From: Saprospira sp. CCB-QB6
GTDB lineage: Bacteria; Bacteroidota; Bacteroidia; Chitinophagales; Saprospiraceae
NCBI RefSeq assembly: GCF_028464065.1
Contig: NZ_CP116808.1
Location: forward strand, 1,007,886-1,071,885
Direction: 5' to 3'
Length of the DNA stretch: 64,000 nucleotides
Shown piece after piece: positions 1,078 to 63,345 of the stretch. The translations under genes were made by a program, and so were the position numbers. The notes below the pieces were generated by a model. The model ran no database searches. It was not told the origin of the DNA and saw nothing but the letters and a program-made list of their open reading frames with translations. The number at the start of each line of letters is the position of its first letter. The first letter of the stretch is position 1.

Positions 1078-1262
1078 GTTTTGGGGCCTCCGCAGCAAAG
1101 CTGCGGCGCTATGCTTCGGGGCTCGCAGGTCTGCTCGGCCCTGCAGGCAGGCTTTGCCTGCCTTTGGTCTGGCCCTTCGGGCCACCCGCTCCGCAGCGCT
1201 AGGCCAAACAAAAGGCAGCCTGTAGCTGCCCCAAAAGCCCTGCAAGCAGGGCAAAAGTTTTG
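1078..1262 (+). repeat. GC-rich repeat element R1
   Basis: ttttggggcctccgcagcaaagctgcggcgctatgcttcggggctcgcaggtctgctcggccctgcagg...ctgtagctgccccaaaag. Confidence 0.8.
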
Positions 1263-1388
1263 GGACCAAATTCTCCCCTTTCTTTAAACTGCTTACTATC
1301 TTTGGCGTTTCTTAAATTTAGAAAGTCCCTGACTAAGACTTTCTCGCAACTGAACTGATTTTTTACCGCCCTATAAATCTTCCAATTT

Positions 1389-1745
1389 ATGGCCATTATT
1401 ATCACTGACGAATGTATTAACTGCGGAGCCTGCGAACCCGAATGCCCCAATACCGCCATCTATGAAGGCGGCGTAGAATGGTCCTATGAAGAAGGCACCG
1501 AAGTAGAAGGCGACTTTCAACTCCATAACGGACAAACCGTAAACGCCAGCATCATGAATGAACCCGTTTCCGATGATTTTTATTTCATCGTAAGCGATAA
1601 ATGCACAGAATGTGTCGGCTTTCATGAAGAACCCCAATGCGCTGCCGTCTGCCCTGTAGATTGCTGTGTACCCGATCCCGATCATGTAGAAGAAGAAAGC
1701 ACCCTACTACAGAAAAAAGCCATTATGCACCCTAGTGAAGAATAA
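1389..1745 (+). CDS. 4Fe-4S dicluster ferredoxin
   Basis: Two cysteine clusters, [12 protein letters not shown] and [22 protein letters not shown]. These are the classic CxxCxxCxxxCP ferredoxin motifs. Confidence 0.8.
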
Positions 1746-1760
1746 AATTCCTAGAAAAAA

Positions 1761-1792
1761 TTTGGTCTTTTCATTTTAGCAGCTTATATTTG
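1761..1792 (+). promoter_or_regulatory. putative Bacteroidota-type promoter (-33 TTTG / -7 TATATTTG) for tRNA-His copy 1
   Basis: TTTG at 1761-1764 and TATATTTG at 1785-1792 are about 20 nt apart. This matches the TAnnTTTG consensus of Bacteroidota sigmaA promoters. The same motif recurs at about 1961-1970 before copy 2. Confidence 0.35.
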
Positions 1793-1806
1793 TGCCGCTT
1801 CAACAT

Positions 1807-1881
1807 GGAGGGTGTAGCTCAGTTGGTTAGAGCGCCAGATTGTGGTTCTGGAGGTCGTGGGTTCGAAACCCATCATCCTCC
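1807..1881 (+). tRNA. tRNA-His (anticodon GTG), copy 1
   Basis: The cloverleaf was folded by eye. An encoded G-1 pairs with discriminator C73, which is the tRNA-His hallmark. The D-arm reads TAGCTCAGTTGGTTAGAGC. The anticodon stem is CCAGA/TCTGG with loop TTGTGGT, giving anticodon GTG. The T-arm reads GTGGGTTCGAAACCCAT. No CCA is encoded. Confidence 0.85.
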
Positions 1882-1884
1882 CTA

Positions 1885-1928
1885 CATAAAAGCAAAAGCG
1901 AGATCGTTAAAACGATCTCGCTTTTTTT
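1885..1928 (+). terminator. rho-independent terminator after tRNA-His copy 1
   Basis: Perfect hairpin GCGAGATCGTT AAAA CGATCTCGC followed by T8. Confidence 0.7.
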
Positions 1929-1984
1929 ATACCTAAAACTTGGATTATCCAAAAAGCTGACTTATATTTGTACCGCTTCAACAT

Positions 1985-2324: not shown

Positions 2325-3062
2325 TTAAGCTAAGCTGAGCAGGCGTTGTTCCACCTCTTTGAGGAGTCCAAAAAGGGATTGAAAATTATCTAAGCAATAG
2401 TAAACCGATTGCATTTCGTGCTTATAAAAATGGTGTTGCAAAACGGTTTCTAGTTGGAAGGGGCGAAATTCACAATTGTTTCCCTGATGGACTTGAATAC
2501 TTTCGCCAAAAGAGGACAAAATGCCTGCGCCATAAATTTCTTGGCCTTGGGCATTTTGGCAAACGCCAAACTCAATGGTAAACCAATAGAGGCGTTCGAG
2601 AGCGGCCACTGCCTCTGGCAAATGGGCCAGTTGCAGGCCGATACGGCCAAACTCCTGCATAAAATCGGCATATTGGGCATTGAAAAGCAGGGGAATATGG
2701 CCAAAAGTATCGTGAAACATATCGGGTTCTTCTAGATAGTCTAGCTCCTCCATTTTTCGGAGCCAGGTAGAAGAGGGGAAGCGGCGCTGGGCCAAAAGGG
2801 CAAAAAACTCCTCTACGGGAATCAGGCCGGGGACCACCTCAATGCTAAAATTTTGTTCCTTTTGGAGCAGGGGGGATAGTTGGTTAAAGTTGGGAATTTC
2901 TTGGCCATTTAGGGCTGTTTTGGCGGCTTCTAAGGCGGGCCAAAGTTCGCCTACTGCTTTATCTTTTAGGTTATCCCACTGTCGTTGAAATAAAAGTTGC
3001 CAAACGGCTTGATCTTCGGCTTGATAGGCCGCATAATTTTGCTGCATCATAGTTTTGTACAT
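2325..3062 (-). CDS. phhA: phenylalanine 4-monooxygenase (aromatic amino acid hydroxylase)
   Basis: The motif PDMFHDTFGHIPLL contains the iron-binding His pair found in the ArAAH catalytic domain. The length of about 245 aa is typical of bacterial PhhA. Confidence 0.8.
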   Translation of the reverse strand: MYKTMMQQNYAAYQAEDQAVWQLLFQRQWDNLKDKAVGELWPALEAAKTALNGQEIPNFNQLSPLLQKEQNFSIEVVPGLIPVEEFFALLAQRRFPSSTWLRKMEELDYLEEPDMFHDTFGHIPLLFNAQYADFMQEFGRIGLQLAHLPEAVAALERLYWFTIEFGVCQNAQGQEIYGAGILSSFGESIQVHQGNNCEFRPFQLETVLQHHFYKHEMQSVYYCLDNFQSLFGLLKEVEQRLLSLA

Positions 3063-3318: not shown

Positions 3319-4323
3319 ATGCACACACATTATCACATTCGACTCTCTCAGGATGGGCAACTTTGGGCAGAATTTTCTTTGCCTCAAGAGGCGGAAGCTA
3401 GCCTAATGCTCAATGCTTTAGAGACTATTTTGGACCTTTATCAAGAGGAAGATATTTACTTTTTGTTCAATGAACAAAAGATTACGGTAGGGCCTGCACA
3501 AACAGAAGAAGAACAATCTATTTTGGAGCTGAGTTTAGCCGAGCTTTGGGCAGATTTGGAAGAAGCCTTCTTTGTTTTGAATGGCCAAATTTGGAAGCTT
3601 TACTTACTAGACCGGGCTATTGAAGGACCTGCTGAACCTCAGCTTTTGGAGCTAGGCTCCCCTTTGCAAGAGGTTTGGCAAGAGCCTGCTTCTTTGCTTG
3701 AGGAACTAACGAATATGTTAGAAATGGCGCCTTTACCTTTAGAGGAGGAAGAGGAAGAACAAAACTATACAGCTCAAGAATTAGCTCTTTTTCAGACCCA
3801 ACTAGAGTTTAAAAAGATTCAGTTTCGCCAATATAAAGCTTTGGGAGAAAAGGCCATGCAGCAACTGCCCGAAGCAGAGCTATTCCGACAATTTTCGCAA
3901 GATCAAAATAGCATTGCCATTATTGTGCAGCACCTTTGGGGCAATATGCGTTCTCGCTGGACCGATTTTCTGAATAGCGATGGCGAAAAAGAATGGCGCA
4001 ACCGAGACAATGAGTTTGAGCTTTACCTCAAAGATCGAAAAGCGGTAATGGATTATTGGGAAGAGGGCTGGCTTTTCCTTTTCAATGCGCTAGACCAATT
4101 GGAGGCTAAAGATTGGGACCGCAACATTTACATTCGGGGCGAAGAGCATTATGTTTGGCAGGCTATTGATCGGCAATTGGCGCATTATAGTTACCATATT
4201 GGCCAAATTGTACTTTTTGCTCGCATCTTTAAACAAGATCCCTGGGAAAGCCTTTCTATTCCCAGAGGAAAATCGGCTGAATACAACCAGATGATGCAGG
4301 AGGAAAACGAAGGAGAAGACTAA
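3319..4323 (+). CDS. hypothetical protein with DinB/YfiT-like (DUF1572-type) C-terminal domain
   Basis: The C-terminal roughly 120 aa carry a His pattern (WQAIDRQLAHYSYHIGQI) reminiscent of the DinB_2 four-helix-bundle family. The N-terminal part is acidic and unrecognised. Confidence 0.4.
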   Translation: MHTHYHIRLSQDGQLWAEFSLPQEAEASLMLNALETILDLYQEEDIYFLFNEQKITVGPAQTEEEQSILELSLAELWADLEEAFFVLNGQIWKLYLLDRAIEGPAEPQLLELGSPLQEVWQEPASLLEELTNMLEMAPLPLEEEEEEQNYTAQELALFQTQLEFKKIQFRQYKALGEKAMQQLPEAELFRQFSQDQNSIAIIVQHLWGNMRSRWTDFLNSDGEKEWRNRDNEFELYLKDRKAVMDYWEEGWLFLFNALDQLEAKDWDRNIYIRGEEHYVWQAIDRQLAHYSYHIGQIVLFARIFKQDPWESLSIPRGKSAEYNQMMQEENEGED

Positions 4324-5865: not shown

Positions 5866-6423
5866 ATGGCACTTACGCCCTCCAATATGCTGCCCCTAGG
5901 CACTTCGGCCCCAGCTTTCAACCTGCCCGATACCGTTTCAGGCCAAACGAAAAGCCTTGCCGAACTCCAATCTGATCAAGGAACCCTAGTTTTCTTTATC
6001 TGTAATCATTGCCCTTATGTGATCCATGTCTTGCCTGAGCTCAAACGCCTAGCCCAAGACTATCAAGCCAAAGGAATTAGCTTTATCGCAATTAGCTCCA
6101 ATGATGTAGAGAATTATCCAGATGACTCTCCCGAAAAGATGAAGGAACTGGCCCAAGAAGAAGGCTGGGACTTTCCCTACCTCTATGATGAGGACCAAAG
6201 CGTAGCCAAAGCCTATGATGCCGCTTGCACGCCCGATTTCTATCTTTTTGACGCCGCTGGAAAATTAGCCTACCGTGGCCGTCTAGATGACTCTCGCCCC
6301 AATAGCGGAACGCCCTTAACTGGCGCAGATTTAAGAGCCGCCCTAGATGCTGTACTCGCTAAACAAAGCGTTAGCGAAACACAATATCCTAGCGCCGGCT
6401 GTGGTATTAAATGGAAAAAATAA
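5866..6423 (+). CDS. thioredoxin-fold redoxin (TlpA/AhpC-TSA-like) protein
   Basis: A CxxC-like motif lies in the segment FFICNHCPYV on a thioredoxin-like fold. The six-frame ORF begins at 5788, but the internal Met at 5866 (MALTPSN...) is the more plausible start. Confidence 0.6.
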   Translation: MALTPSNMLPLGTSAPAFNLPDTVSGQTKSLAELQSDQGTLVFFICNHCPYVIHVLPELKRLAQDYQAKGISFIAISSNDVENYPDDSPEKMKELAQEEGWDFPYLYDEDQSVAKAYDAACTPDFYLFDAAGKLAYRGRLDDSRPNSGTPLTGADLRAALDAVLAKQSVSETQYPSAGCGIKWKK

Positions 6424-6427
6424 CCCT

Positions 6428-7228
6428 ATGCATCAAGCATTTTTATGGGAAATAAAGCAGGGAGGCCAAGCGCCTCCCTCTTTTGTGTTGGGCAGTATGC
6501 ACAGTACCGACCAACGAGTATTTGGCGGACTCGACCAATTGACCGCCCTACTCAATGAAGTAGACTATTTTGCCCTAGAGTTTGATAGCCAAACGCTAAA
6601 TGAAGAACAACAACTTCAACTGCATCTAGCCCAACAACTTCCCCAAGGACAACAACTCTCCGATTTGGTTTCGCCTAGCATCTGGCGCAAACTCCAAAAA
6701 CTGTTTGCTCAAGAATTGGGTATGCCCTTTTTACTGGACCAATTGACGCATAGCCGCCCTATGCTTATCCCTCAATTCTATAACCAATGGAAGGCCGCTA
6801 AGGATTATCCCATGGCTCTAGACCACTACCTTTTACAACTGGCCCAAGAAAAAGAACTGCAAATCGAAAACCTAGAGACTTTTGAAGAGATGCTCTCGGT
6901 CTTTGAACACTTACCCCTAGCCCCACAAATCTGGGCCCTCAAGAAGTTCGCCTGCCAAGGAGGCAAACAATGGAAGAAGTTCCAACAAAGCCTAAACGCT
7001 TATGCCGAAGGTAATCTACCCTACCTCCTAAAACAACAGCAAAAGGTCTCTGGCAAAAGCAGAAGGGTCATTCTTCTCCATCGCAACCAAGCCATTTTGC
7101 CCCGTATGCAAAAACTAATGGATAAAGGCCCTAGCCTAATGGTCCTTGGCCTTTATCACCTGATCGGCGCCCAAGGATTATTGCGCAGCCTCAAACAAAA
7201 AGGCTATTTAGTGCGCCCTCTGTTTTAA
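6428..7228 (+). CDS. TraB/GumN family protein
   Basis: The segments GSMHSTDQRVF and LGLYHLIGAQGLLRSLKQKGYLV match the TraB/GumN signature. The track ORF at 6347 overlaps the upstream gene, so the start was moved to the Met at 6428. Confidence 0.6.
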   Translation: MHQAFLWEIKQGGQAPPSFVLGSMHSTDQRVFGGLDQLTALLNEVDYFALEFDSQTLNEEQQLQLHLAQQLPQGQQLSDLVSPSIWRKLQKLFAQELGMPFLLDQLTHSRPMLIPQFYNQWKAAKDYPMALDHYLLQLAQEKELQIENLETFEEMLSVFEHLPLAPQIWALKKFACQGGKQWKKFQQSLNAYAEGNLPYLLKQQQKVSGKSRRVILLHRNQAILPRMQKLMDKGPSLMVLGLYHLIGAQGLLRSLKQKGYLVRPLF

Positions 7229-7267: not shown

Positions 7268-8401
7268 CTACTCCAACTTTTCTAAACCCCCAAATTCCGC
7301 CTGCCCCTTAACCAACATGGCTTTCCTAGCCGATAATTCTACCCGCTCCGATTTTTGCAAACAACTAAAGTCCGCCGCTAAGATCTCTGCCAATTCCGCC
7401 AAAACTTCTTCCCGACTCAACCAATACTGCTCACTCAAAAAGATGTCATCCAATAAGGCCTGCTTTAAAGGAGCTAAGGCCTCATCTAAATTCAAATCAC
7501 TGCGATAAAGCGCTTCTAAGCGCTCAAAAAGAGCCAAATGCTGCCCCCGACCCAATAAACTATATTGCCGCCCCTCTTCCAATAAGGCAATGCTCCAACT
7601 CCCCAATGAATAGCCCAAACTATCCAAGGGATAGGCCGCATAAAAAAGTTCTACCAATTGGTCGTCTAAACTATCCGGACTTTGCTGCGCCCGCGCCCCC
7701 CAATATTTATAATCCCGATACAATTTGTACTCGGTCTTTGGCGAAGGCAAATAGACCAAAAAACCCGGAAATACATGGTTGAGCCAAAAGAAATTAGCCA
7801 AACTATCCGCCGAACTCAAGGCCAAGGCCTCATTTACCCGCTCCTCTAAGGCCAACTCCAATTTTTCGCCCCTCCGATAAACCAACCGAAAAGCAGGCAA
7901 GCTCTCTATCGCCGCCGCCTCCCGCTGATACTGCTTGAGCTCTCCCGCCAACTCATCCCCAAAAAAGAAGTGCAAACGCCGATCTAACCAAAGCCGCTGC
8001 AAATCCTCCGACGGCAGGCTGTCAAAACTCAAACAACCCCCAAATAACCAGCCCTTATGCCCATCCGCCGCCTCTACTTCTAACCAAGGCTCCCGATAAT
8101 CTACCCCCTCCAACCGAATTAAACTCTCCGCCTTGCTCATCCGCCCCAAATACCGAAAACTACTGCCTTTGTGGTAGGTCCGCAAACTTTCTGCTGCCCA
8201 ATCTGGCGCCGCTTTTAACTCCCCCTCCCGACTACTCAAACTCAAAGATGCTCCCCGCCCATCTGTCGATAAATATAGGCTACTATCGGCCGTTTCTGCC
8301 AAGGGCTCCTCCGCAGAAATAGGCAATTCTTTAGCCTTTTCCTCACTGCAAGCCCCCAACAACAACAGGGCAAAAAAATATAGATATAACTGCTTGTTCA
8401 T
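7268..8401 (-). CDS. hypothetical lipoprotein (377 aa)
   Basis: Signal peptide with a lipobox (LLLLGACSEE). No known domain recognised. Confidence 0.55.
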   Translation of the reverse strand: MNKQLYLYFFALLLLGACSEEKAKELPISAEEPLAETADSSLYLSTDGRGASLSLSSREGELKAAPDWAAESLRTYHKGSSFRYLGRMSKAESLIRLEGVDYREPWLEVEAADGHKGWLFGGCLSFDSLPSEDLQRLWLDRRLHFFFGDELAGELKQYQREAAAIESLPAFRLVYRRGEKLELALEERVNEALALSSADSLANFFWLNHVFPGFLVYLPSPKTEYKLYRDYKYWGARAQQSPDSLDDQLVELFYAAYPLDSLGYSLGSWSIALLEEGRQYSLLGRGQHLALFERLEALYRSDLNLDEALAPLKQALLDDIFLSEQYWLSREEVLAELAEILAADFSCLQKSERVELSARKAMLVKGQAEFGGLEKLE

Positions 8402-8411
8402 CTTGTTTTAT

Positions 8412-8570
8412 TTTTGGGGCAGCCCCTCCCGTTGGTCGGGTCGCTACGTTTCGGGGCTCGCAAGCCTGCTCGGCCCTTCGGCGGCAATGCCGCCTCGGTC
8501 TGGCCCTACGGGCCACTGCTGCACATCGCTCAGCCAAAAAGACTGGGCTAAAGCCCAGCGAAAATAGAAG
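8412..8570 (+). repeat. GC-rich intergenic repeat element R3 (TTTTGGGGC... family)
   Basis: Starts ttttggggcagcccctccc 10 bp from the start codon of the 7268..8401 gene. It shares the modules gctcgcaagcctgctcggccc and ggtctggccctacgggccactgctgcacatcgct with the other copies. Confidence 0.75.
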
Positions 8571-8788: not shown

Positions 8789-9489
8789 TGGGAATTTCCC
8801 CAGCTCAATCGGAGGCGGCAAATTAGCCTGGGGAAAATCCCCAAGGTGTTTGGATTTTTCCGATTAGCTTGGGGAAAATCCCCAAGGCGTTTGGATTTTT
8901 CCGATTAGCGTGGGGAAAATCCCCAAGGCATTTGGATTTTTCCGATTAGCTTGGGGAAAATCCCCATGGTGTTTGGATTTTTCCGATTAGCTTGGGGAAA
9001 ATCCCCATGGTGTTTGGATTTTTCCGATTAGCGTGGGGAAAATCCCCATGGTGTTTGGATTTTTCCGATTAGCTTGGGGAAAATCCCCAAGGCATTTGGA
9101 TTTTTCCAATTAGCGTGGGGAAAATCCCCAAGGTGTTTGGATTTTTCCAATTAGCGTGGGGAAAATCCCCATGGTGTTTGGATTTTTCCGATTAGCTTGG
9201 GGAAAATCCCCAAGGCATTTGGATTTTTCCGATTAGCGTGGGGAAAATCCCCAAGGCATTTGGATTTTTCCGATTAGCTTGGGGAAAATCCCCAAGGCAT
9301 TTGGATTTTTCCGATTAGCGTGGGGAAAATCCCCAAGGCATTTGGATTTTTCCGATTAGCTTGGGGAAAATCCCCATGGTGTTTGGATTTTTCCGATTAG
9401 CGTGGGGAAAATCCCCATGGCATTTGGATTTTTCCGATTAGCGTGGGGAAAATCCCCAAGGCATTTGGATTTTTCCGATTAGCTTGGGA
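8789..9489 (+). repeat. tandem array of about 16 x 41/42-bp units (GGGGAAAATCCCCAAGGYRTTTGGATTTTTCCRATTAGCKT) with leader aatcggaggcggcaaattagc
   Basis: Read directly: the period is 41 bp, with occasional 42-bp units carrying an extra T. Each unit holds two small palindromes, GGGGAAAATCCCC and TTGGATTTTTCCRA. Variation is confined to four positions (a/t, yr, g/a, t/g). No unique spacers are present and no frame stays open. Confidence 0.9.
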
Positions 9490-10477: not shown

Positions 10478-10612
10478 GGCAATTGGCCTAGCGATGTGCA
10501 GCAGTGCCGCGAAGCGGCAGACCGAGGCCGTTAGGCCGAAGGGCCGAGCAGGCTTGCGAGCTGCGAAACGTAGCGCCGCAAGGCGCAGGCCGCAGCGGAG
10601 GCCCCAAAAAAA
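10478..10612 (-). repeat. GC-rich intergenic repeat element R4
   Basis: Carries ggcctagcgatgtgcagcag...ggccgagcaggcttgcgagctgcgaaacgtagcgcc...ggaggccccaaaaaaa. It is the reverse complement of the family consensus. Confidence 0.75.
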
Positions 10613-13262: not shown

Positions 13263-15053
13263 ATGAATATCAGAAAAAAAACAATCTTGGGACTACTTGG
13301 CCTAAGTTTATGTTTTGGCAGTTGCCAACCTTCTACTCCTAAAGAAGGCGAGCCGGTTCAAGAAGTTGAGCCTACCCAAGCCAGTAAAAAGATGAAGGAC
13401 CCTTCGGTCACTGTTTGGGAACTAGACGATCCCGATGGATTAAATCCGATTACTTCTCAGGGGGCAGCGGCTACTTATATTCAGAACAACATATTTTCTC
13501 GCTTGTTGGAGTTTCATCCAGAAGATCTCAAGTTAGTCCCTCAATTAGCCTTAACAATGCCTGATGTACGAGAGCTAGAAGAAGGTCCGTATGCAGGAGG
13601 GATGTCTCTGCAGTTTACCATTCGCCCTGAAGCCAAATGGGATAACGGACAAGCAGTTACAGCCTATGATTATCTATTTACCGTTAAGGCAATTAAAAAC
13701 CCCTTAGTAGAATCTGGCAACAGACGTCCTTACTATGAATTTATAGACTCTATTTATATCTCTCCTGAAAATGAGCAAGAGTTTACTATTTTTTCTAAAC
13801 AACGCTACTTTATTGCAGAAGAATCGGCTGGAGATATGCTCATTATGCCCGAGTATATCTACAACCCCGAAGGCCTAATGAAAAAACTGAGCCTTGCTGA
13901 ACTCAATAAAATGGACGCTGATGCGGCGGAAAAAGATGCAGAGCTCAAACGATTTGCAGAACTCTTTAATAGCCCCAAGTATAATAATGAAACAGTGGTT
14001 GGCTCTGGCCCCTATCGCTTTGTAGAATGGAGCAACGGCCAACATATTATCCTAGAACGCAAAAAAGATTGGTGGGGAAATCAAACCAAAAACCCCATGC
14101 TAGTCGCTTATCCCGACAAAATTATTCACAAAGTGGTCAATGACCCTAGTACAGCTATTACCGTCGCTCGCAATGAGGAAATTGACGTTTTGCACAATAT
14201 CAAACCCGTAAAATTTAAAGCACTAAAGGAAGATAAGGAGTTTCAAGAGCTTTTTGAGCTCTCCTCTCCCCACGTTTTTGGCTACTATTATATCGCAATG
14301 AATTTGCGCAACCCCAAATTACAAGATAAAAAACTGCGCCAAGCACTCTCACATATCATCAACCGCCAAGAGATTATTGATGTTCTATTTGAAGGTTTAG
14401 CAACGGAAACCGTTGGACCAATTAACCCCCAAAAAGACCACTACAATGATCAACTAAAACCCTTTAGCTATGACCTCGACCGAGCTAAAGAATTATTAAC
14501 AGAAGCCGGCTGGACCGATTCTAATAATGATGGCTTCCTAGATAAACGCATTAACGGCAAATTAGAAAAATTGAGCTTGGAGTTCCTATATAATCAAGGC
14601 AACGAAATTCGTAAAAATATTGGCCTCTTACTCCAAGGCGAAGCCCGTACCCTCGGAATCGAAATTAAAATTAAAAGCGCCAAATCCTCTGTTGCTAAAA
14701 TGAAAGCAAAAAATGGAGAATTTGAACTCATCTGCTCTGCTTGGGCTCAAGGCCCCCAACTCGATGAACTCAAACAAGGATGGCACTCTAGCTCCTACGA
14801 AACCAACGGAAGTAATTATATAGGCTTCCGCAATGAAGAATGCGACCGCATTATTGATAGTATCCGCGTAACGCTAGAACCCCAAAAACGTAAAGCACTC
14901 TATTTTCGCGCCCAAGCTATTATCCACGAAGAACAACCTTATCTCTTTCTCTGTGTGCCAAGTAGCTGCTTTGCTATCCACAAGCGCTTTTCAAATATCG
15001 AAACTTCCCCCTTGCGCCCAGGCTATCGGGTGACCGACTTCCAACTGAAATAA
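13263..15053 (+). CDS. ABC transporter substrate-binding lipoprotein (family 5, peptide/oligopeptide type)
   Basis: Signal peptide with a lipobox Cys. A 596-aa SBP_bac_5-like architecture. Confidence 0.7.
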   Translation: MNIRKKTILGLLGLSLCFGSCQPSTPKEGEPVQEVEPTQASKKMKDPSVTVWELDDPDGLNPITSQGAAATYIQNNIFSRLLEFHPEDLKLVPQLALTMPDVRELEEGPYAGGMSLQFTIRPEAKWDNGQAVTAYDYLFTVKAIKNPLVESGNRRPYYEFIDSIYISPENEQEFTIFSKQRYFIAEESAGDMLIMPEYIYNPEGLMKKLSLAELNKMDADAAEKDAELKRFAELFNSPKYNNETVVGSGPYRFVEWSNGQHIILERKKDWWGNQTKNPMLVAYPDKIIHKVVNDPSTAITVARNEEIDVLHNIKPVKFKALKEDKEFQELFELSSPHVFGYYYIAMNLRNPKLQDKKLRQALSHIINRQEIIDVLFEGLATETVGPINPQKDHYNDQLKPFSYDLDRAKELLTEAGWTDSNNDGFLDKRINGKLEKLSLEFLYNQGNEIRKNIGLLLQGEARTLGIEIKIKSAKSSVAKMKAKNGEFELICSAWAQGPQLDELKQGWHSSSYETNGSNYIGFRNEECDRIIDSIRVTLEPQKRKALYFRAQAIIHEEQPYLFLCVPSSCFAIHKRFSNIETSPLRPGYRVTDFQLK

Positions 15054-15104: not shown

Positions 15105-15106
15105 TT

Positions 15107-15325
15107 TTTGGGGCCTGCGGTGGGCGGTTACTCCCTTCGGTCGTCGAACTGCGAACTAAAGTTCTTGTTGTCGTTGCGCAGCTCGCTGCTGTTTTGGGGC
15201 CTCCGCCTCGCTGCGCTCGTCGGCGCTACGTTGCGCAGCTCGCTACTCGCTCGGCCCTGCGGCCTGACGGCCTTGGTCTGCGGCTGCGCCGCACTGCTGC
15301 ACATCGCTAGGCCAAAGGCTGGCCC
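15107..15325 (+). repeat. GC-rich repeat elements R5a+R5b (two adjacent units)
   Basis: The first unit (15107-15195) contains ggtcgtcgaactgcgaactaaagttcttgttgtcg, which is the reverse complement of the same module at about 21300-21345. The second unit (15196-15325) is near-identical to R22. Confidence 0.75.
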
Positions 15326-18559: not shown

Positions 18560-18702
18560 GGCCCTACGCTTTGGCCTAGCGATCTGCAGCAGTGGCCGTT
18601 AGGCCAGACCCAGGCGCTGCAAGCGCCGCAGGGCCGAGCAGACCTGCGAGCTGCGAAAGGTAGCGCCGACGAGCGTAGCGAGGCGGAGGCCCCAAAAATA
18701 AA
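18560..18702 (-). repeat. GC-rich repeat element R6
   Basis: Family modules ggcctagcgatctgcagcagtggcc...gggccgagcagacctgcgagctgcgaaaggtagcgcc...ggaggccccaaaaa. Confidence 0.75.
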
Positions 18703-23789: not shown

Positions 23790-23802
23790 TTTTTTACTCA
23801 TT

Positions 23803-40354: not shown

Positions 40355-40412
40355 AAACTCCTTTTGTTTTAAATGAACTTAATATAAAAGCGCTTGCTGT
40401 TTATTATTTCGT

Positions 40413-45023: not shown

Positions 45024-46025
45024 ATGACTCAAATTTCGCGCATTCTGGGCGAACGCAGCGGCTCTGAAAAAGGGCCGCTGTTGCTTATTCTCACCCAGGT
45101 TCATGGCAACGAACCCGCTGGCTATTATGCCGTTCAAGAACTCTTTCAACGCATTGATCAAGAGTACCAAAATAAAGCAGATTTCGACTATCGCGGCCGT
45201 ATCGTCGCCCTAAGAGGCAACCTAGCCGCTATCGCCTCTGGCCAACGATTTATTGATGAGGACTTTAACCGAATCTGGACCAATGAACGGGTCGAACGAA
45301 TCAAAAATAGCTCCTTTGATGAACTCCAATCTCAAGAGGAAAAAGAACTCAAAGGGCTGCTCGAAACCATCCAAGAACTGATGGACCAACATCAGGACGA
45401 ACAGGTTGTTTTGCTCGATTTGCACACCACTACCGCCAAGGGCGGGATGTTCCTCATCCCCTCTACCGATGAAAATTCTAGAGCGCTGGGCCTCAATATT
45501 CACGCTCCGCTCCTACACGGATTTCTCGACGGACTAGAAGGTACGATCCTTCACTATTTTCGCCAAGAAAATTTTCCCCAACATCAACTGACTTGCATCT
45601 GCTTTGAAGCCGGCCAACACGATAGCCTCTCCTCTGTCGGCCATGCCGTTTCGGCGATCATCCAATGCTTTACCGCTATGGGCGGCTTCTATGCCGAAGA
45701 TATCGAAATGAAACACGAACTCCGCCTTAGCGAAGAAAACCAAGGCCTGCCCAAAGAAGGCCGACTCGCCTACTGCCACCGCATCCACCAAGGCGATAAC
45801 TTTAAGATGCGTAGCGATAAAATTTATCGCAATTTTGACCCCATCTACAAAGGAGAATTGCTGGCCGAAGACAAAAATGGCCCCATCTATTCCCCCCTCG
45901 ATGGCCTCATCCTCATGCCGCTTTACCAAAAACAAGGCAACGACGGCTTTTTTATCATTGAAGATATGGACCAGTCTGCCCCTAAATTGGGCCGAAAAAT
46001 CCCCAAAACAATCCTCAATGCCTAG
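45024..46025 (+). CDS. succinylglutamate desuccinylase/aspartoacylase (AstE/AspA) family protein
   Basis: The motifs HGNEPAG and LDLHTTT are the zinc-binding/structural signatures of this family. Confidence 0.65.
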   Translation: MTQISRILGERSGSEKGPLLLILTQVHGNEPAGYYAVQELFQRIDQEYQNKADFDYRGRIVALRGNLAAIASGQRFIDEDFNRIWTNERVERIKNSSFDELQSQEEKELKGLLETIQELMDQHQDEQVVLLDLHTTTAKGGMFLIPSTDENSRALGLNIHAPLLHGFLDGLEGTILHYFRQENFPQHQLTCICFEAGQHDSLSSVGHAVSAIIQCFTAMGGFYAEDIEMKHELRLSEENQGLPKEGRLAYCHRIHQGDNFKMRSDKIYRNFDPIYKGELLAEDKNGPIYSPLDGLILMPLYQKQGNDGFFIIEDMDQSAPKLGRKIPKTILNA

Positions 46026-46123
46026 AATCTGCAAGTTTGTCCAAAGAAAACAACTATTTTGATTTAGTCTTGTTAACTTTGCGGCCCAAGACGGAAACGG
46101 CCAATTGTTTTATTCATGGCTAT

Positions 46124-46290
46124 TTTTTGGGGCCCGCGGCCAGCAAGCTGGCAGGCGCTACGTTTCGCAGCTCGCAGGTTTGCTCGGCCCTGCAGCGCTA
46201 AAGCGCTTTGGTCTGGCCTTCGGCCACTGCTACACATCGCTAGGCCAATTGCCTAAAGGCCGAGGCGGCTCCGCCGCCCATCCCAACCGC
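46124..46290 (+). repeat. GC-rich repeat element R16
   Basis: ttttttggggcccgcggccagcaagctggcaggcgctacgtttcgcagctcgcaggtttgctcggccctgcagcgc... It creates a spurious in-frame N-terminal extension of the ferredoxin ORF. Confidence 0.75.
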
Positions 46291-48048: not shown

Positions 48049-48272
48049 CAGGGCGCGAAGCGCCCGCAGGCTGAGCTGCCGAAGCAGGGCCGCCGAAGGC
48101 GGCAGACCAAAGCGCTGAAAGCGCTGCAGGGCCGAGCAAACCTGCGAGCTGCGAAGTGGAGCGACCCGACCGATAATTCATGAGGGTTTTAACCCTCATT
48201 TTGTATCGCTTCGCAAAGCGATACCGCTTTGCGCTGGGTTTTAACCCGGCGGAAGGGGCAGCCCCAAAAAAA
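48040..48272 (-). repeat. GC-rich composite repeat element R17 (core + atgagggttttaaccctcat + gcaaagcgataccgctttgc modules)
   Basis: Its reverse complement is near-identical to 49683-49800 of R18. It ends ggcagccccaaaa 4 bp from the stop of the 48276..49664 gene. Confidence 0.8.
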
Positions 48273-49682: not shown

Positions 49683-49925
49683 TATTTTTTTGGGGCTGCC
49701 CCTTCCGCCGGGTTAAAACCCAGCGCAAAGCGGTATCGCTTTGCGAAGCGATACAAAATGAGGGTTAAAACCCTCATGAATTATCGGTCGGGTCGGGCTG
49801 TGTCGCAGCTCGCTGATCGCTCGGCCCTGCGCAAAATTTCGCTGCGCTCATTTTGCTTGGTCTGGCCTTCGGCCACTGCTATCCATCCCTCAGCCTGCGG
49901 GCGCTTCGCGCCCTGTCCCCTGCAA
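49683..49925 (+). repeat. GC-rich composite repeat element R18 (inverted copy of R17 modules plus R13-like core)
   Basis: ttttggggctgccccttccgccgggttaaaacccagcgcaaagcggtatcgctttgcgaagcgatacaaaatgagggttaaaaccctcatgaattatcggtcgggtcgggctgtgtcgcagctcgctgatcgctcggccc... Confidence 0.8.
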
Positions 49926-50437: not shown

Positions 50438-50607
50438 AGTTTTGGGGTCCAAGAGGCGGCTTCGCCGCCTGCGAGCGAAGACTTGGCCCAATAGGCTTTT
50501 AAAACCCAGCGCAACAAAGGTATCGCTTTGCGATGATTTATAAATGAGGGTTGAACCCCTCATGAATTTAGCGGCCACCCTAATTAAAGGGTGGCCGCGG
50601 GCCCCAA
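50438..50607 (+). repeat. GC-rich repeat element R19 (variant: ttttggggtcc...atgagggttgaacccctcat...gggccccaaagc)
   Basis: Shares the aaacccagcgcaa..ggtatcgctttgcga and atgaggg..ccctcat modules with R17/R18. Confidence 0.65.
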
Positions 50608-50641
50608 AGCATAAAAAAAGAGGACCGAAGTCCTCCCTTTT
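50608..50641. terminator. bidirectional terminator
   Basis: Hairpin GAGGACCGAAGTCCTC flanked by A7 and T-rich sequence, immediately downstream of the M61 peptidase gene. Confidence 0.6.
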
Positions 50642-54102: not shown

Positions 54103-54852
54103 TTAACGGCGTTTTCCCCCTCTTTTCATATAACTCTGCATCTGCCCTTTCATGCCGCCACGGCCACCTTTCATGGCCTGACGCTGCATCTGATGCTGCC
54201 CTTTCAACATTAAATCAATTTCCTGTATGTTTTCTTTAACCTGAGGATTATTAATGTTCAATTTTTTGGCCGTCTCCAAATAGTCTTTCATTTTCATCAC
54301 ATAAGGACGACGCTGCGTTTCTGTGGTCATTTTTTGCGCATACATTCCCTGCACATTAATGAGCTGCAAATAAAGCATCCCCCGAATATCATCCGGCAAA
54401 TCTAAACCTAATGCCTGATTGGCCAATTTTTCACATTTTTTGGTCTCTCCTTTTTGCAAGGCCAAACCCGAACGGATGAAGTAGTACATCCCATGATAAC
54501 CAAATTGCAACCATTCTGGCTTAAACGTATAGGCCAACACTTTTTCCGCTCCCTCCGTATCGCCAATCTGCATTTTCATGGCCGCCGCATTCACCGTACC
54601 AATCAAAAAATGCTTGACCAACAAGATAATAACCACCAATAAAGGCATCCAAGCCCAAGCAAAACCCACTGTGGGCCAAAGTCCTATGGTCAAGGCCAAA
54701 CAAGCAAAAAACAAAATCAGCTGTCGCTGAAAAGTGAAAAATTGAATGAAGGATAACATATTTTTCGATTTATTATTTTCGTTAAGTGCCGCAAAGATAC
54801 GAAAGCTTGGGCGCAGGACTGCTTTTTTTTTATTTTTTTGTCTGTCCCCCAT
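54103..54852 (-). CDS. hypothetical membrane protein, paralogous in architecture to 53528..54091, with G/K/M-rich tail
   Basis: Same 2-TM plus helical domain layout. The C-terminus reads KGGRGGMKGQMQSYMKRGGKRR. The start may instead be the internal Met at MLSFIQFF. Confidence 0.45.
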   Translation of the reverse strand: MGDRQKNKKKAVLRPSFRIFAALNENNKSKNMLSFIQFFTFQRQLILFFACLALTIGLWPTVGFAWAWMPLLVVIILLVKHFLIGTVNAAAMKMQIGDTEGAEKVLAYTFKPEWLQFGYHGMYYFIRSGLALQKGETKKCEKLANQALGLDLPDDIRGMLYLQLINVQGMYAQKMTTETQRRPYVMKMKDYLETAKKLNINNPQVKENIQEIDLMLKGQHQMQRQAMKGGRGGMKGQMQSYMKRGGKRR

Positions 54853-54876
54853 TTTATAACTTTATTTTGATCTAGT

Positions 54877-54996
54877 TTTGGGGCTGCCCCTCCCTATGGT
54901 CGGGTCGGGCTGTTTCGCAGCTCGCTATTCGCTCGGCCCTTCGGCGCAAAGCGCCTCGGTCTGGCCCTACGGGCCACTGCTGTCCATCCCTCAGCC
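54877..54996 (+). repeat. GC-rich repeat element R20 (near-identical to R11)
   Basis: ttttggggctgcccctccctatggtcgggtcgggctgtttcgcagctcgctattcgctcggccc...ccactgctgtccatccctcagcc. Confidence 0.8.
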
Positions 54997-55216
54997 AGAT
55001 TTAATCGCGCTGCTTTGGCCATAGTTTGCTATGAATTTTTGGCTAGGCCAGCTATTTTTTAAGGACATAGCCTTCGCTATGACCGAGAAAAATAGGGCCG
55101 ACTAGCGGGAAATTGCTGCAAACTATAAAAGTGAGTGCGCTTAAATTTGGCTATTACCTGCGGCGCTGCGCGCCTGCTAAACGCAAATTATCTCCTTTTG
55201 GACCAAATTACCACTT

Positions 55217-55967: not shown

Positions 55968-56092
55968 TTTTGGCCTAGCGATGTGCAGCAGTGGCCCAAA
56001 GGGCCAGACCAAAGCCCGAAGGGCTGAAGGGCCGAGCGAATAGCGAGCTGCGCAACGTAGCGCCGACGACCAAAGGGAGGCGGAGGCCCCAA
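55968..56092 (-). repeat. GC-rich repeat element R21
   Basis: ggcctagcgatgtgcagcagtggcc...gggccgagcgaatagcgagctgcgcaacgtagcgcc...ggaggccccaaaac. Confidence 0.75.
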
Positions 56093-56097
56093 AACCA

Positions 56098-56853
56098 CTA
56101 ATGTCCCCTTTTTTCGAGTAGGATAACATAGCGCATGAAAACGCCCCAGGCCAGTAATTTGCAGACGATAAAGCCCACTTTGCCATCGCGGAAGCCCTGT
56201 TGGATGATGTAGTGTTTGAAGAAGCGGAAAGCGGGTTTGAGGTAGAGGTGGAAAAAGCCCACTTTGGGGGTTTTGCTGGCGTAATCGCCAGCGGACCAAT
56301 GGGCGTAGCGCTCCATTTTGGCCATAAAATGGCGCATACTTTTAAATGTATAGTGCAGTAGGCGGCCTTTTAGCCAAGCGACTTTTCCCTTGGTAATAAT
56401 TTCGGCATGCACCTCTTTTTCCTCATAGCTGCAAAGATCGCGTTTAAAAAAGCGGATCACGGCATCATTTTGCCAGCCTGAAAAGCGGACCGCCTGTCCC
56501 ATAAAATGGTTATCGCGGCCCATCCAGTAGGCAATAGGTCCTTGGGGATCTTCAGCTTGGCTCATGATGGCCTTGATTTCGGCCGTTAGATTTTCGCTAG
56601 GGCGTTCATCGGCATCCAGCAGAAAAATCCATTCATTTTTGGCTTGGGGAATGGCCCAATTTTTTTGGCTAGCCGAGTTACCGTATTCTCTTTGAATAAT
56701 TCGGGCGCCGGCTTTTTCGGCCACGGCTAAAGTATCATCCGTACTAAAAGAATCGACGACCAGCACCTCATCGGCCCAGCTGACCAAAGGCAATAACTCT
56801 CGGAGGTTATCGGCTTCGTTGAAGGTGGGAATCAGTACAGTAAGCGGGCGCAT
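56098..56853 (-). CDS. family 2 glycosyltransferase
   Basis: VLIPTFNEADNL...VVDSFSTDDT...LLDADE is the GT2 (GT-A) signature. Confidence 0.75.
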   Translation of the reverse strand: MRPLTVLIPTFNEADNLRELLPLVSWADEVLVVDSFSTDDTLAVAEKAGARIIQREYGNSASQKNWAIPQAKNEWIFLLDADERPSENLTAEIKAIMSQAEDPQGPIAYWMGRDNHFMGQAVRFSGWQNDAVIRFFKRDLCSYEEKEVHAEIITKGKVAWLKGRLLHYTFKSMRHFMAKMERYAHWSAGDYASKTPKVGFFHLYLKPAFRFFKHYIIQQGFRDGKVGFIVCKLLAWGVFMRYVILLEKRGH

Positions 56854-60800: not shown

Positions 60801-60841
60801 ATATTTAGCTCGGCAGCTACTTTTACTAACCTTTTTGACAT
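57827..60841 (-). CDS. infB: translation initiation factor IF-2
   Basis: G-domain motifs are present ([24 protein letters not shown]). A long K/E/N-rich N-terminal region precedes them. Length is 1004 aa. Confidence 0.95.
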
Positions 60842-61138
60842 TCCGTGTATTTAGCTAATTGCGTAAAAATCGTGATTTTAAAAAATCGGTACAAATATAG
60901 TCAATATATTTGAGAGCATTCCCATAACATTAGGAAAAATGCCTTTTGGCCCCTTCTTTATTCTCCGAAAAGCCTAGGGCCCTTGCTTTTCTAGTCTCGA
61001 ATCAAGAGTCGTGATACTAGCGTTTTTTTGGGTTTTCACTACCTACTAAACACTAGAATCACTGGAGTCCAGCTAAAAAAAGGCCTAAGTACAAGAAGTA
61101 CTAACTGAGCTTATACTTAGGCCCGTCAAAGGCAGCAG

Positions 61139-62449
61139 TTATTCTGCGCTATCCTCCTCAGAAGATTCCTCTTCCTCAATAGCTTCATCGGGCAAATCTT
61201 TGCCACTATCATCAAACTCTGCTTTAAGGACGACAATGATTTCCTTAATGGTCTCCTCTTCCAAATCTGTGCGACGCAAGAGCTCGTCCAAACTTAGATT
61301 GAGTACATTTCTGGCTGTATCACAACCAATATTCTTCAATTCATCAATGACCCAATCTTCAATCTCATCTCTAAACTCATCGAGTTCTACATCAAAGTCG
61401 GCATCTGTATCAAAGGCGCCTTCTCTAAAGACGTCAATGTTGTAATCTACTAAACGGCTAGCCAATTTGATATTGACCCCCTTCTTTCCAATCGCCTTAG
61501 AAATTTCAGCCGCTTCCAAAAAGACAGAAGCTTTGCGATTGTCCAAGTCCAATTCTACCGAACTGATCCGCGCTGGCGTCAACGCCCGCTGAATCAATAA
61601 GGCTTCATTGCTAGTATAATTGATAATGTCTATGTTTTCGTTCCGCAACTCCCGAACAATTCCGTGAATTCTAGAACCTTTCATCCCTACACAAGCCCCT
61701 ACAGGGTCAATTCGCTCGTCATAAGACTCTACCGCTACCTTGGCTCTATCACCAGGCGCACGAACAATCTTACGCACCGTAATCAATCCATCCTCAATCT
61801 CTGGCACCTCCTGCTCTAACAAACGCTCCAAAAAGCTGCTCGCCGTACGCGAAAGGATAACCATCGGGTTGTTGTTTTTGTTCTCTACCCGATCCACTAC
61901 CGCACGAACCATATCTCCCTTACGGAAATAATCGCCGCGAATAGTTTCCGACTTAGGCAACATCAACTCCGCTCCCGTAGCCTCATCCACAATAACAAAT
62001 TCCCGCTTCAAGGTCTGTGCTACCTCCCCAAAAATAAGGTCCCCGATCCGATCGGCATACATCTGATATACCTTGTCCTTCTCTAGTTCCAAAATTCTTG
62101 AAATTAAGGTCTGACGAGCCGCCATGATCGCACGACGACCAAAATCAGCTACCCCCACTTTTTCATAACACTCCTCACCTACCTCATAATCCTCCTCAAT
62201 CTTTACCGCATCGCTAATCGCAATATGATAACGATCATCCTCTACCTCGCCATCGGGAACGATCTCGCGCTTGCGCCAAATCTCTAAATCCCCCTCAATG
62301 GTGCTCACAATGATATCAAAGTTATCATCGGCCCCATATTTTTTGCGAATAAGGGTTCTGAATACATCCTCGAGCACCCGCACCATCGTTGGGCGATCAA
62401 TGCTCTTCATATTTTTAAACTCCGAAAAGGAATCAATCAAATTGATCAT
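61139..62449 (-). CDS. nusA: transcription termination/antitermination factor NusA
   Basis: N-terminal domain, S1 and KH domains are recognisable (GDRAKVAVESYDERIDPVGACVGMKGSRI). It lies directly upstream of infB. Confidence 0.95.
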   Translation of the reverse strand: MINLIDSFSEFKNMKSIDRPTMVRVLEDVFRTLIRKKYGADDNFDIIVSTIEGDLEIWRKREIVPDGEVEDDRYHIAISDAVKIEEDYEVGEECYEKVGVADFGRRAIMAARQTLISRILELEKDKVYQMYADRIGDLIFGEVAQTLKREFVIVDEATGAELMLPKSETIRGDYFRKGDMVRAVVDRVENKNNNPMVILSRTASSFLERLLEQEVPEIEDGLITVRKIVRAPGDRAKVAVESYDERIDPVGACVGMKGSRIHGIVRELRNENIDIINYTSNEALLIQRALTPARISSVELDLDNRKASVFLEAAEISKAIGKKGVNIKLASRLVDYNIDVFREGAFDTDADFDVELDEFRDEIEDWVIDELKNIGCDTARNVLNLSLDELLRRTDLEEETIKEIIVVLKAEFDDSGKDLPDEAIEEEESSEEDSAE

Positions 62450-62465
62450 ACCTTATGTATAATTT

Positions 62466-62954
62466 TTAAAATGTAATCTTAACTAACGCCTTCTTAATAC
62501 GCTCAAAGGGAATCTCCTGACGCATCTCGACCAACTCTTTCTTCTTCCGCCCCTCCAATTTCACTTTCTCACTATAAGTCAATACAATATGCTCCTCCGT
62601 CACTTCTTCTAACTTCCCCTTTGCATGCTTGTGCTCTCCCTCAATCTCTACCGATAACTCCCGCCCTATGTTCTTCACATACTGACGATGTAGCTTTAAC
62701 GGACGATCTAGGCCCGGAGAAGACACATCCAAGGTGTATTTCTCTCCCAACCAACCATTCTCCTCTATCTGAGCTTCCAAATGACGACTCAATCGCGCAC
62801 AATCTCCAAAATTGACCCCATTGTCACTGTCAATAAAAACCTGCACTTTGTTCTCGCCCTTATACTCAATCTCTACCAGAAATAAAGCCTCTCGACCCTC
62901 TTCTGCAAAATAAGCCGCTATCAAATCGGCTAGCTTTTCCGTAATTGTTGGCAT
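62466..62954 (-). CDS. rimP: ribosome maturation factor RimP
   Basis: Position upstream of nusA and its length of 162 aa are both conserved. The motif ...LEVSSPGLDRPL is present. Confidence 0.85.
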   Translation of the reverse strand: MPTITEKLADLIAAYFAEEGREALFLVEIEYKGENKVQVFIDSDNGVNFGDCARLSRHLEAQIEENGWLGEKYTLDVSSPGLDRPLKLHRQYVKNIGRELSVEIEGEHKHAKGKLEEVTEEHIVLTYSEKVKLEGRKKKELVEMRQEIPFERIKKALVKITF

Positions 62955-62967
62955 CTGACTTCTTTAT

Positions 62968-63030
62968 AATAAAAAGAGGGAACGTTTTCACGGTTCCCTC
63001 GCTCAATGCGTTTTGCTGCCACAAATATAA
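62968..63030 (-). promoter_or_regulatory. rimP-nusA-infB leader: putative promoter (-7 TATATTTG) followed by hairpin+U-run attenuator
   Basis: On the minus strand, gcttatatttgtggc (plus 63019-63033) is followed by gagggaaccgtgaaaacgttccctc ttttt (plus 62970-62999), directly before the rimP start. Confidence 0.35.
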
Positions 63031-63194
63031 GCATTTATCTTTAGCTTTTCGGACTTTCTCCAGATTTGTTAGCCCAGCCCCCAATTTTTCCACCTCCTCT
63101 CCCCTCTTTTATACTCCCTCAATTTCTACTGTTTTGGGGCCTATCAGCAAAGATGATTTAAAGGTTTTCTTCTCTTTATGTTGCTTACTGTTTT

Positions 63195-63345
63195 TTTGGG
63201 GCCTCCGCCTCGCTTCGCTCGTCGGCGCTACGTTCCGCAGCTCGCTGTTCGCTCGGCCCTTCGCCAGCTTCGCTGGCTCGGTCTGGCCTACGGCCACTGC
63301 TGCACATCGCTAGGCCTGCGGCCCTTCGGGCCTGTAGGACGAGAA
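63195..63345 (+). repeat. GC-rich repeat element R22 (near-identical to R5b)
   Basis: tttttggggcctccgcctcgcttcgctcgtcggcgctacgttccgcagctcgctgttcgctcggccc...ccactgctgcacatcgctaggcc. Confidence 0.8.

Follow-up and report, generated by a model that had tools for sequence, protein, structure and literature searches.

Dense intergenic palindromic mosaics in Saprospira, fixed in position and exchanged in content

Among the interspersed repeats described in bacteria, the repetitive extragenic palindromic (REP) sequences and bacterial interspersed mosaic elements (BIMEs) of Enterobacteria and Pseudomonas, associated with the REP-associated tyrosine transposase (RAYT, or TnpA-REP), are GC-rich extragenic palindromes whose copies number in the hundreds to thousands. 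They are found between the genes of operons and between convergent genes, occur in both orientations and as inverted neighboring pairs, are mosaics of modules, hold positions common to strains, and are mobilized by an enzyme acting in trans without target duplication. In all of these respects they resemble the element considered here, an intergenic repeat of the marine bacterium Saprospira sp. CCB-QB6, analyzed in a 64-kb stretch of its chromosome (hereafter the window). Eleven proteins encoded there are exact matches to records of that genome. In Bacteroidetes, ‘atypical secondary structures’ have been noted around RAYTs of subclass 2.6, though with short hairpins as the listed examples and without mention of Saprospira (Quentin et al., 2018; PMC6006769). 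Our search of the published literature found no account of these repeats in Saprospira or Saprospiraceae. On balance, we consider that they probably constitute a new, lineage-specific family of REP/BIME-like mosaic repeats, in which each unit is a nested palindrome of ~125 nucleotides (nt) maintained at the level of DNA rather than a gene, and which is ancient and sessile in Saprospira.

The repeats were located with a covariance model built from 18 copies, which recovers exactly 21 full-length copies in the window, 10 on the forward (+) and 11 on the reverse (-) strand, besides which there are two partial copies (15106-15191 and ~50570-50640). A preliminary description of this DNA had counted at least 22 copies, 11 in each orientation; the family it reported is real and lies where it had been placed, though the tally becomes 21 full copies and two fragments. 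The 16-nt core search pattern, GCTCGCN{5,6}GCTCGGCCCT, has 21 matches in the window and none in 100 shuffles of it, the sequence TTTTGGGGC occurs 25 times against 2.3 expected, and GC islands of 116-206 nt (64-69% GC, over a genome background of ~46%) coincide with the repeats. Together, the copies occupy 5.6% of the window at a density of about one per 3 kb, the Saprospira plasmid included. Among 135 collected copies no two are identical. Pairs earlier described as near-identical do share 95, 85, 92, and 95% identity over 101-129 nt, but the most similar full-length pair in the window reaches only 96%, and the median pairwise identity of window copies is 68%. The covariance model finds no match in 1.39 Mb of control DNA bearing the 16-nt pattern (745 kb of viral loci and 641 kb of mostly high-GC genomes). 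A phage origin was considered and discarded, as 80 of 80 viral loci with the pattern fail the model; a general plasmid origin fared no better, matches among 72,556 plasmids being confined to two Saprospira plasmids. Four Lewinellaceae metagenome-assembled genome (MAG) loci bearing the pattern were likewise rejected by the model as members of the family.

The unit measures 120-145 nt (up to ~210), typically ~125 nt, has a GC content of 66-70%, and comprises five helices, two of them long-range. Read in the TTTTGGGGC orientation, it consists of a T-run of 2-8 bases; the 5' strand of P1, a 5-bp closing stem; the P2 hairpin; the 5' strand of the long-range stem P3 (GCGCTAYGYT.CG.RGC); an invariant core (GCTCGC-N5-6-GCTCGGCCCT); the P4 hairpin; the string T.GGTCTG; the P5 hairpin; and finally the 3' strands of P3 and P1, which read ..CAKCSCT-NR-GCC. 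P2, P4, and P5 are variable hairpins, and the conserved sequence lies in the junctions between helices. What had been described as two types of end, TTTTGGGGC and GCCCCAAAA, is a single 5' end read in opposite orientations, the true 3' end being ..C(A/G)(T/G)C(G/C)CT-NR-GCC; the modules listed at that time, namely the atgagggtt..aaccctcat, ctgtaggtt..acctacag, and gcaaagcgataccgctttgc palindromes and the ggtcgtcgaactgcgaactaaagttcttgttgtcg block, are all present. Copies may further have small hairpins past the 3' end, the GGTCGTCGAACTGCG... module (27 nt, in P2), or 20-22-bp palindromes clustered over 76 nt.

These small palindromes make up a further repeat family, smaller than the main one, whose members read NNNAGGGTT(N1-4)AACCCTNNN or CTGTAGGTT..AACCTACAG; nine lie in the window (at 32937-33145, 40565, 48179-48252, and 49706-49778); the 76-nt cluster sits in the P2 loop of two copies of the large element, in CCB-QB6 only. 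We also note that the motif CTCGCT(N1-6)CGCTCG recurs in three settings, the invariant core, the P2 region of the GGGGCCTCC class, and the loops of long P4 variants (e.g., 15204-15225, 40483-40500, and 49833-49852), a recurrence that looks like that of a repeated binding site.

Evidence on the history of the family comes from relatives, which here are Saprospira grandis Lewin (locus L206) and DSM 2844, both at 80-94% DNA identity, and two metagenomic Saprospira contigs, of which L207 is 95-98% identical to the window. Of the 21 sites, 19 can be compared in at least one relative, and at all 19 the element is present in the same place and orientation, with no empty site and a single truncation (at 21213, where L207 has the 5' half only). 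The interiors are another matter. At one and the same site, P2 and P4 are often unrelated hairpins from strain to strain, both strands of P3 switch jointly between GCAGC/GCTGC and GGGGC/GCCCC versions, and the linker alternates between 5-nt and 6-nt alleles, these block swaps lying between flanks that are 90-100% identical. Differences that span whole hairpins or whole copies therefore point to ectopic gene conversion. The clearest case is the L207 copy at 4167-4287, at the site orthologous to window position 8411, which shares 99.2% identity with the window paralogue at 32141 but 83% with its own orthologue, the flanks being unchanged; this is ectopic gene conversion, in tracts of ~125 nt or less. 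Conversion between copies with unchanged flanks likewise accounts for the near-identical pairs of the window, for the 76-nt insert common to the two copies that flank the dipeptidase gene, and for the three module sets found in three strains at the site after the M61 peptidase gene. The preliminary description had left the choice between recent mobility and gene conversion, and it is the latter that the L207 copy demonstrates directly; recent mobility finds no support, there being no empty site among the 19 and no duplications, and every copy being distinct. It had also reasoned that identical copies at identical positions would mark the elements as old, fixed REP-like sequences, and here the positions are indeed fixed, as in such sequences, but the copies differ and have exchanged their interiors. 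The family had reached its density of about one copy per 3 kb, on chromosome and plasmid alike, before the sampled Saprospira strains diverged, and its sites are common to genomes that are 80-98% identical. Change at present consists of frequent short-tract ectopic gene conversion between dispersed copies together with a turnover of hairpins that are perfectly Watson-Crick throughout.

Placement follows a strict rule. The T-run end always faces a gene end, being either past the stop codon of a co-oriented gene (sense copies) or toward the start of an oppositely oriented gene (antisense copies). Sense copies begin 0-6 nt past the stop codon in plasmid operons and 0-22 nt past it in about half of the window cases, the overall range being 0 to ~170 nt; the T-run of antisense copies lies 9-236 nt from the start codon. 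Neighboring pairs are convergent in 13 of 13 cases, with their T-runs outward, and 74% of copies are singletons. Elements occupy 7 of 10 convergent, 3 of 9 divergent, and 9 of ~32 tandem spacers in the window. Along the sequence, orientation is unbiased (10:11 in the window, 11:10 on the plasmid), and in the window's tandem spacers it splits 6:4. The pur and paa operons of the S. grandis Lewin plasmid, whose genes all point in the same direction, hold five sense and five antisense copies. That plasmid carries 21 copies in 50 kb and is as dense as the chromosome. The flanking genes have housekeeping functions (IF-2, NusA, RecO, and the pur operon) and are syntenic between strains.

Beyond Saprospira, the distribution of the family is patchy. 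Two relatives with a 76-78% identical dipeptidase have no copies in 39 kb, and the spacer between the L-PSP and dipeptidase genes measures 9-25 nt in these two relatives against ~296 nt in the window. The core, with a covarying P1, is found in Phaeodactylibacter luteus, two Saprospiraceae MAGs, one Bacteroidota MAG, and one Flavobacteriales MAG. In P. luteus, P4 and P5 are missing, and the core is part of a 190-230-bp element with 20-bp terminal inverted repeats (GGGCGCAAACCAGATTGTCG / CGACATTTTGGTTTACGCCC), of which ~8 of 14 copies are bordered by 6-8-bp direct repeats (one a perfect 8-mer, TGATGAAC, and others matching at 7 of 8 positions). With these hallmarks the P. luteus version is a classical miniature inverted-repeat transposable element (MITE), that is, a small non-autonomous transposon. 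Apparent “orphan” terminal repeats in P. luteus were dismissed as spurious approximate matches. In the Flavobacteriales MAG (locus L105), a gene for a RAYT-like HUH/Y1 protein of 178 aa (5910-6553; DHLH...WQ...YVKNNP) starts 23 nt past a copy of the element, with a palindrome, GTAGAGACGGAATATATTCCGTCTCTAC, within the gene and at its stop codon. A link between RAYT and element through this locus was considered and rejected, as the gene has GTAG palindromes of its own and its adjacency to the element is probably coincidental. In the Bacteroidota MAG (locus L074, 7415-7640), a direct repeat of 35 nt (three mismatches), consisting of the 3' end of the upstream gene with its stop codon, flanks the element; its length far exceeds that of the usual target duplication.

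The fold itself is well supported and invites the question of whether it is selected as DNA or as RNA. Pairing extends to 97.1% of cells in the 21 window copies, compared with 80.9% in shuffles and 34-51% with partners slid, and double-sided changes number 93 against 30 expected; 77 further copies give 95.3% against 78% and 351 double-sided changes against 117. With its register corrected by hand, P1 is fully Watson-Crick (5/5 pairs) in 112 of 135 copies and exists in seven versions (GGCCT/AGGCC, GGCTG/CAGCC, GGCCC/GGGCC, GGCTT/AAGCC, GCGCC/GGCGC, GCATC/GATGC, and GCGTA/TACGC). Covariation of this strength in a multi-branched fold, with junction nucleotides conserved across genera, is what might be expected of a structured RNA acting in cis within transcripts as a 3' untranslated region stabilizer, a processing site, or an unconventional terminator; such a role would also suit the 14 of 21 window copies that are sense and just past a stop codon and the higher occupancy of convergent than of divergent spacers, and stems that are purely Watson-Crick would, like REP hairpins, fold in either orientation. 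We nonetheless regard an RNA of this kind as quite unlikely. The 89 distinct P4 and P5 hairpins comprise 436 stem pairs, among which there is no G.T (G.U in RNA) and a single A.C, and the long-range stems change from GC to AT or CG without wobble intermediates. An apparent RNA-type strand asymmetry (154 G.T against 10 A.C) proved to be an alignment-register error in P1 and the base of P2, leaving one conserved G.T (GGCC/GGTC). Antisense copies are preserved as well as sense copies and have similar covariance-model scores, and the even division of orientations within operons and the 6:4 split in tandem spacers ignore the direction of transcription. Searches against Rfam 15 returned only tRNAs at gathering score, the repeats having no match even at E-values up to 5; folding energies of single copies are mostly not significant against shuffles (z of -0.2 to -2.6), and the fold of the complementary strand is on average 1.6 kcal/mol more stable, which offers no usable signal on the strand. 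A terminator scan found no hairpin with a T-tract within the element core, and sigma-70 promoter-like matches in the elements are at the level of shuffles. Because the covariation is Watson-Crick only and orientation is unrelated to transcription within operons, we read the fold as a nested inverted repeat, or palindrome, maintained in DNA, and not as a typical RNA.

If the element is DNA, it might still be an active MITE of Saprospira, mobilized by a trans-acting DDE transposase whose gene lies elsewhere, as the P. luteus version, the equal density of plasmid and chromosome, the 95-96% identity of some pairs, and the presence of strain-specific fragments and inserts could suggest. We hold this to be decidedly unlikely. 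In Saprospira, two tests for target-site duplication under all boundary definitions tried gave a signal equal to that of the shuffled control, no terminal inverted repeat extends beyond the 5-bp P1, whose sequence itself varies, and no conservation was found in the flanks of the copies; neither orphan cores nor split copies enclosing a gene occur in 321 kb, and no candidate for an autonomous insertion sequence with the ends of the element was seen among the loci examined. To this must be added the absence of empty sites among the 19 compared, the distinctness of all 135 copies with their low median identity, and the near-identical pairs already attributed to conversion between unchanged flanks. 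The MITE first suggested for these repeats thus has its counterpart in P. luteus, with terminal inverted repeats and 8-bp duplications, but not as an active element in Saprospira. The suggested REP/BIME-like behavior holds up better, the repeats being intergenic, palindromic, modular, and present in both orientations, with any mobilizing enzyme acting in trans; and, as the preliminary description had said, no transposase domain is found in the window. A last possibility is a recombination site read as folded single-stranded DNA by a tyrosine recombinase, in the manner of attC sites or Vibrio cholerae repeats, that would mark gene cassettes. The length of ~120 nt, a structure kept while stems vary, a position directly 3' of open reading frames (ORFs), and strand-specific loops all recall such sites, but the RYYYAAC / GTTRRRY boxes are lacking, the ends instead being TTGGGGC ... 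GCC, no integrase is nearby, and the flanking genes are syntenic housekeeping genes among which the elements have mixed orientations rather than forming co-oriented arrays. Gene content and orientation largely refute this interpretation, which we consider highly improbable.

Returning to the REP/BIME-like palindrome that we prefer, its origin may be sketched as follows. The original insertion would have occurred in trans, by an enzyme that set the element T-run first against a gene end without target duplication. The leading candidate for this enzyme, in a step that we put at less than even odds, is one of the HUH/RAYT or IS200/IS605 type that recognizes structure in single-stranded DNA, a guess prompted by insertion in strict polarity with no target duplication and by the conserved junction. 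Thereafter, hairpin-templated (template-switch) mutation and the repair of breaks at palindromes may have driven the turnover of the hairpins, and in P. luteus the core would have come to be carried inside a DDE-type MITE. On transcription in either direction, the GC-rich stems would probably form stable hairpins that, like those of REP sequences, punctuate operon mRNAs. A bolder proposal, to which we would give only a slender chance, is that the element is the substrate of an undescribed enzyme system that recognizes branched, folded single-stranded DNA through the junction CTCGC-N-GCTCGGCCC and CGCT-NR-GCC, places the element T-run first against stop and start codons with no target duplication, and actively renews the variable hairpins; if true, this would represent a new mode of DNA transposition or of templated hairpin diversification common to several genera of Saprospiraceae, and the repeats would be more than REP-like DNA in decay.

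Several points weigh against the reading that we prefer. Junction sequence is kept across genera as the stems vary, as one would sooner expect of a functional RNA or of a site bound by protein than of junk DNA, and this conservation leaves room for a host function. The hairpin loops are strand-asymmetric, with TTC, TGC, TAC, or TNNC on the T-run strand outnumbering their complements 34:1. Read on the opposite strand, these would be loops of the GNA type, known for their high stability in DNA hairpins. The pair counts come from an alignment that had been fitted to the covariance model, and the copies are related by descent, such that the counts are not independent events. No mobilizing enzyme was found in the Saprospira DNA examined, which amounts to ~7% of one genome's worth, and a scan of some of the Saprospiraceae loci (not the plasmid) for HUH/Y1 motifs gave no ORF in Saprospira sequence, its one hit being the gene at L105. 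Finally, the unbiased orientation of the copies speaks against an enzyme of the IS200/IS605 type, known IS200/IS605 elements showing a replication-strand bias.

The individual copies illustrate both the rule of placement and the exchange of interiors. From the left of the window, the copy at 1079-1207 (+, 106.4 bits under the covariance model) is sense and begins 57 nt past the stop of gene 578-1021; its DSM 2844 orthologue has P4 and P5 swapped. The copy at 2162-2302 (-, 91.8 bits) is also sense, 22 nt past the stop of gene 2325-3062, and has orthologues at L206 7571-7694 and L208 7586-7709. The copy at 8411-8537 (+, 115.1 bits) is antisense to gene 7268-8401 (-), the start codon of which is 9 nt from its T-run end, and its L207 counterpart has an interior of the 32141 type. 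A divergent spacer holds the copy at 10483-10612 (-, 119.9 bits), for which L207 has both P3 strands and P4 swapped between identical flanks. The partial copy at 15106-15191 (+), of which there is a 5' part only, ends in GCTCGCTGCTG, where the T-run of its neighbor takes over, and is absent in L207. The copy that it adjoins (15192-15315, +, 120.8 bits) follows gene 13263-15053 and is 97.5% identical to its L207 orthologue. Farther along, 18571-18698 (-, 125.1 bits) is sense after gene 18794-19795 and has its linker allele swapped in L207, and the full-length variant at 21213-21359 (-, 81.6 bits) bears a GGTCGTCGAACTGCGAACTAAAGTTCTTGTTGTCG block in place of P2, the 3' half being replaced in the truncated L207 version. 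The copy at 23801-23946 (+, 89.7 bits) lies 11 nt past the stop of gene 22128-23789, that at 25241-25385 (-, 85.3 bits) 3 nt past the stop of gene 25389-26066, with orthologues in L206 and L208, and that at 29076-29198 (-, 69.2 bits) after gene 29242-29958, with orthologues at L206 12845-12966 and L208 12844-12965. Two copies are convergent within one spacer (31140-33306), ~910 nt apart: 32136-32261 (+, 109.1 bits), which follows gene 31140-32048 and a terminator-like hairpin and is the 99.2% match of the L207 copy that occupies a different site, and 33172-33301 (-, 108 bits), 4 nt past the stop of gene 33306-36014, with an orthologue at L206 411-535.

A second convergent pair is formed by 40412-40544 (+, 86.2 bits), with its T-run end 57 nt from the start of gene 37895-40354 (-) and orthologues in L121 and L123, and 40685-40818 (-, 95.6 bits), which abuts the stop codon of gene 40819-42141 (0 nt) and has orthologues at L121 19835-19960 and L123 19794-19926. 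The copy at 43802-43929 (-, 107.1 bits) differs in P2 and P4 in all three strains, and the upstream ORF reads 42 codons into it in CCB-QB6; this ORF (43799-44467, -) encodes a membrane protein, and the Lewin stop (..SSVR*) has been lost through a 7-nt deletion in CCB-QB6. Following gene 45024-46025, the copy at 46123-46248 (+, 112.7 bits) has P2 and both P3 strands swapped relative to Lewin and DSM 2844. The dipeptidase gene is flanked by 48067-48272 (-, 79.8 bits), 3 nt past its stop, and 49685-49897 (+, 79.4 bits), whose T-run end is 20 nt from its start codon. Both have the 76-nt small-palindrome block, placed in the P2 loop of the former, and in both cases Lewin and DSM 2844 lack it; the remainder of the former is ~97% conserved, and the first (5') 129 nt of the latter are 95% complementary to 48144-48272. 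The remnant at 50570-50640 (-) consists of a 5' end followed by small palindromes, at a site where Lewin has a full copy and DSM 2844 a different module set. The copy at 54876-54998 (+, 114 bits), with its T-run end 23 nt from the start of gene 54103-54852 (-), differs from Lewin and DSM 2844 by swaps of P3, P4, P5, and the linker; the copy at 55970-56094 (-, 125.9 bits), 3 nt past the stop of gene 56098-56853, differs in P2 in all three strains. The last copy (63191-63318, +, 113.1 bits) is at a site outside the comparable orthologous regions.

Several other features of the window deserve mention. An inverted pair of element sequences, 2164-2272 and 23836-23944 (92% identical, 21.6 kb apart), corresponds to one copy in Lewin (L206 7571-7694), which suggests that copies of the element may serve as substrates of large rearrangements. 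Arrays of a 41-bp tandem repeat, the unit of which holds the palindrome GGGGAAATTCCCC, occur at 8822-9488 (16.3 units) and 32420-32799 (9.3 units), both at breakpoints of a rearrangement relative to S. grandis Lewin and each adjoining an element copy; such an array is also present in L207 (4531-5132). A 178-bp tandem duplication at 1783-2106, with two identical tRNA-His(GTG) genes (1808-1882 and 1986-2060), stops where the accessory hairpins of the copy at 2162-2302 start. The radical-SAM gene at 23985-25196 (-) is split into ORFs of 225 aa and 146-165 aa, compared with a single ORF of 404 aa in Lewin (L206 7736-8950), and may be a pseudogene.

The family is of interest for several reasons. 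If its density holds genome-wide, the ~1 copy per 2.9 kb found in 217 kb of unbiased sequence would translate to ~1,400-1,500 copies, or 4-5% of a genome of 4.2-4.4 Mb, which would place these repeats among the densest interspersed repeats of any bacterium, in a phylum where such elements have been little studied. Their fixed positions, combined with interiors exchanged between strains a few per cent apart, provide a natural gauge of gene conversion and palindrome turnover. They are also a caution for RNA motif discovery, as excellent covariation exists here without RNA-like character and covariation alone can mislead. In practical terms, the repeats break short-read assemblies, as the Logan short-read contigs with the dipeptidase gene imply (L122, L124, and L125, each ~1.5 kb and ending ~51 nt to either side of the gene), and they extend or create ORFs, one gene running 42 codons into a copy; they do not, as had been supposed, generate most of the spurious ORFs, only 29 of 142 non-gene ORFs of at least 60 aa overlapping a repeat. 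Copies at or near the breakpoints of strain rearrangements add to this interest, and the strict orientation rule together with the conserved junction points to a trans-acting protein yet to be found.

How, then, do these repeats stand in relation to the systems already described? Integron attC sites and Vibrio cholerae repeats share with them a length of ~120 nt, conservation as a fold rather than as a sequence, and a position directly 3' of ORFs, but the Saprospira element lacks R-box motifs, cassette arrays, and an integrase and is flanked by core genes. The Correia/NEMIS elements of Neisseria, ERIC/IRU of enterics (127 nt), and BOX and RUP of pneumococcus are similarly non-coding, intergenic, foldable, and 100-250 nt long, BOX being modular as well, and the terminal inverted repeats and 8-bp duplications of the P. 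luteus form are those of DDE-type MITEs. Unlike bacterial MITEs, however, Saprospira copies are without terminal inverted repeats, duplications, or presence polymorphism, are not single long hairpins, and obey a strict rule by which the T-run end faces a gene end. The neisserial and rhizobial mosaic elements (NIMEs and RIMEs) are, like the present family, intergenic mosaics of modules shuffled by recombination; they have no likeness in sequence or architecture to the Saprospira element, NIMEs being assembled from dRS3 and RS units at which a phage integrase acts. It is to REP/BIME that the family comes closest, and the differences are instructive. A REP is a single hairpin of 20-40 nt with a stem conserved within the genome, as opposed to a branched unit of ~125 nt with two long-range stems, in which the junctions are conserved and the hairpins hypervariable. 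A REP has a 5' GTAG or CGTC tag at the foot of its hairpin, and none is seen beside P2, P4, or P5. No RAYT gene flanked by copies of the element (a REPtron) was found in the loci scanned, and the gene at L105 has its own GTAG palindromes. Classical REP sequences are, in fact, more closely resembled by the small 20-22-bp palindromes than by the large element.

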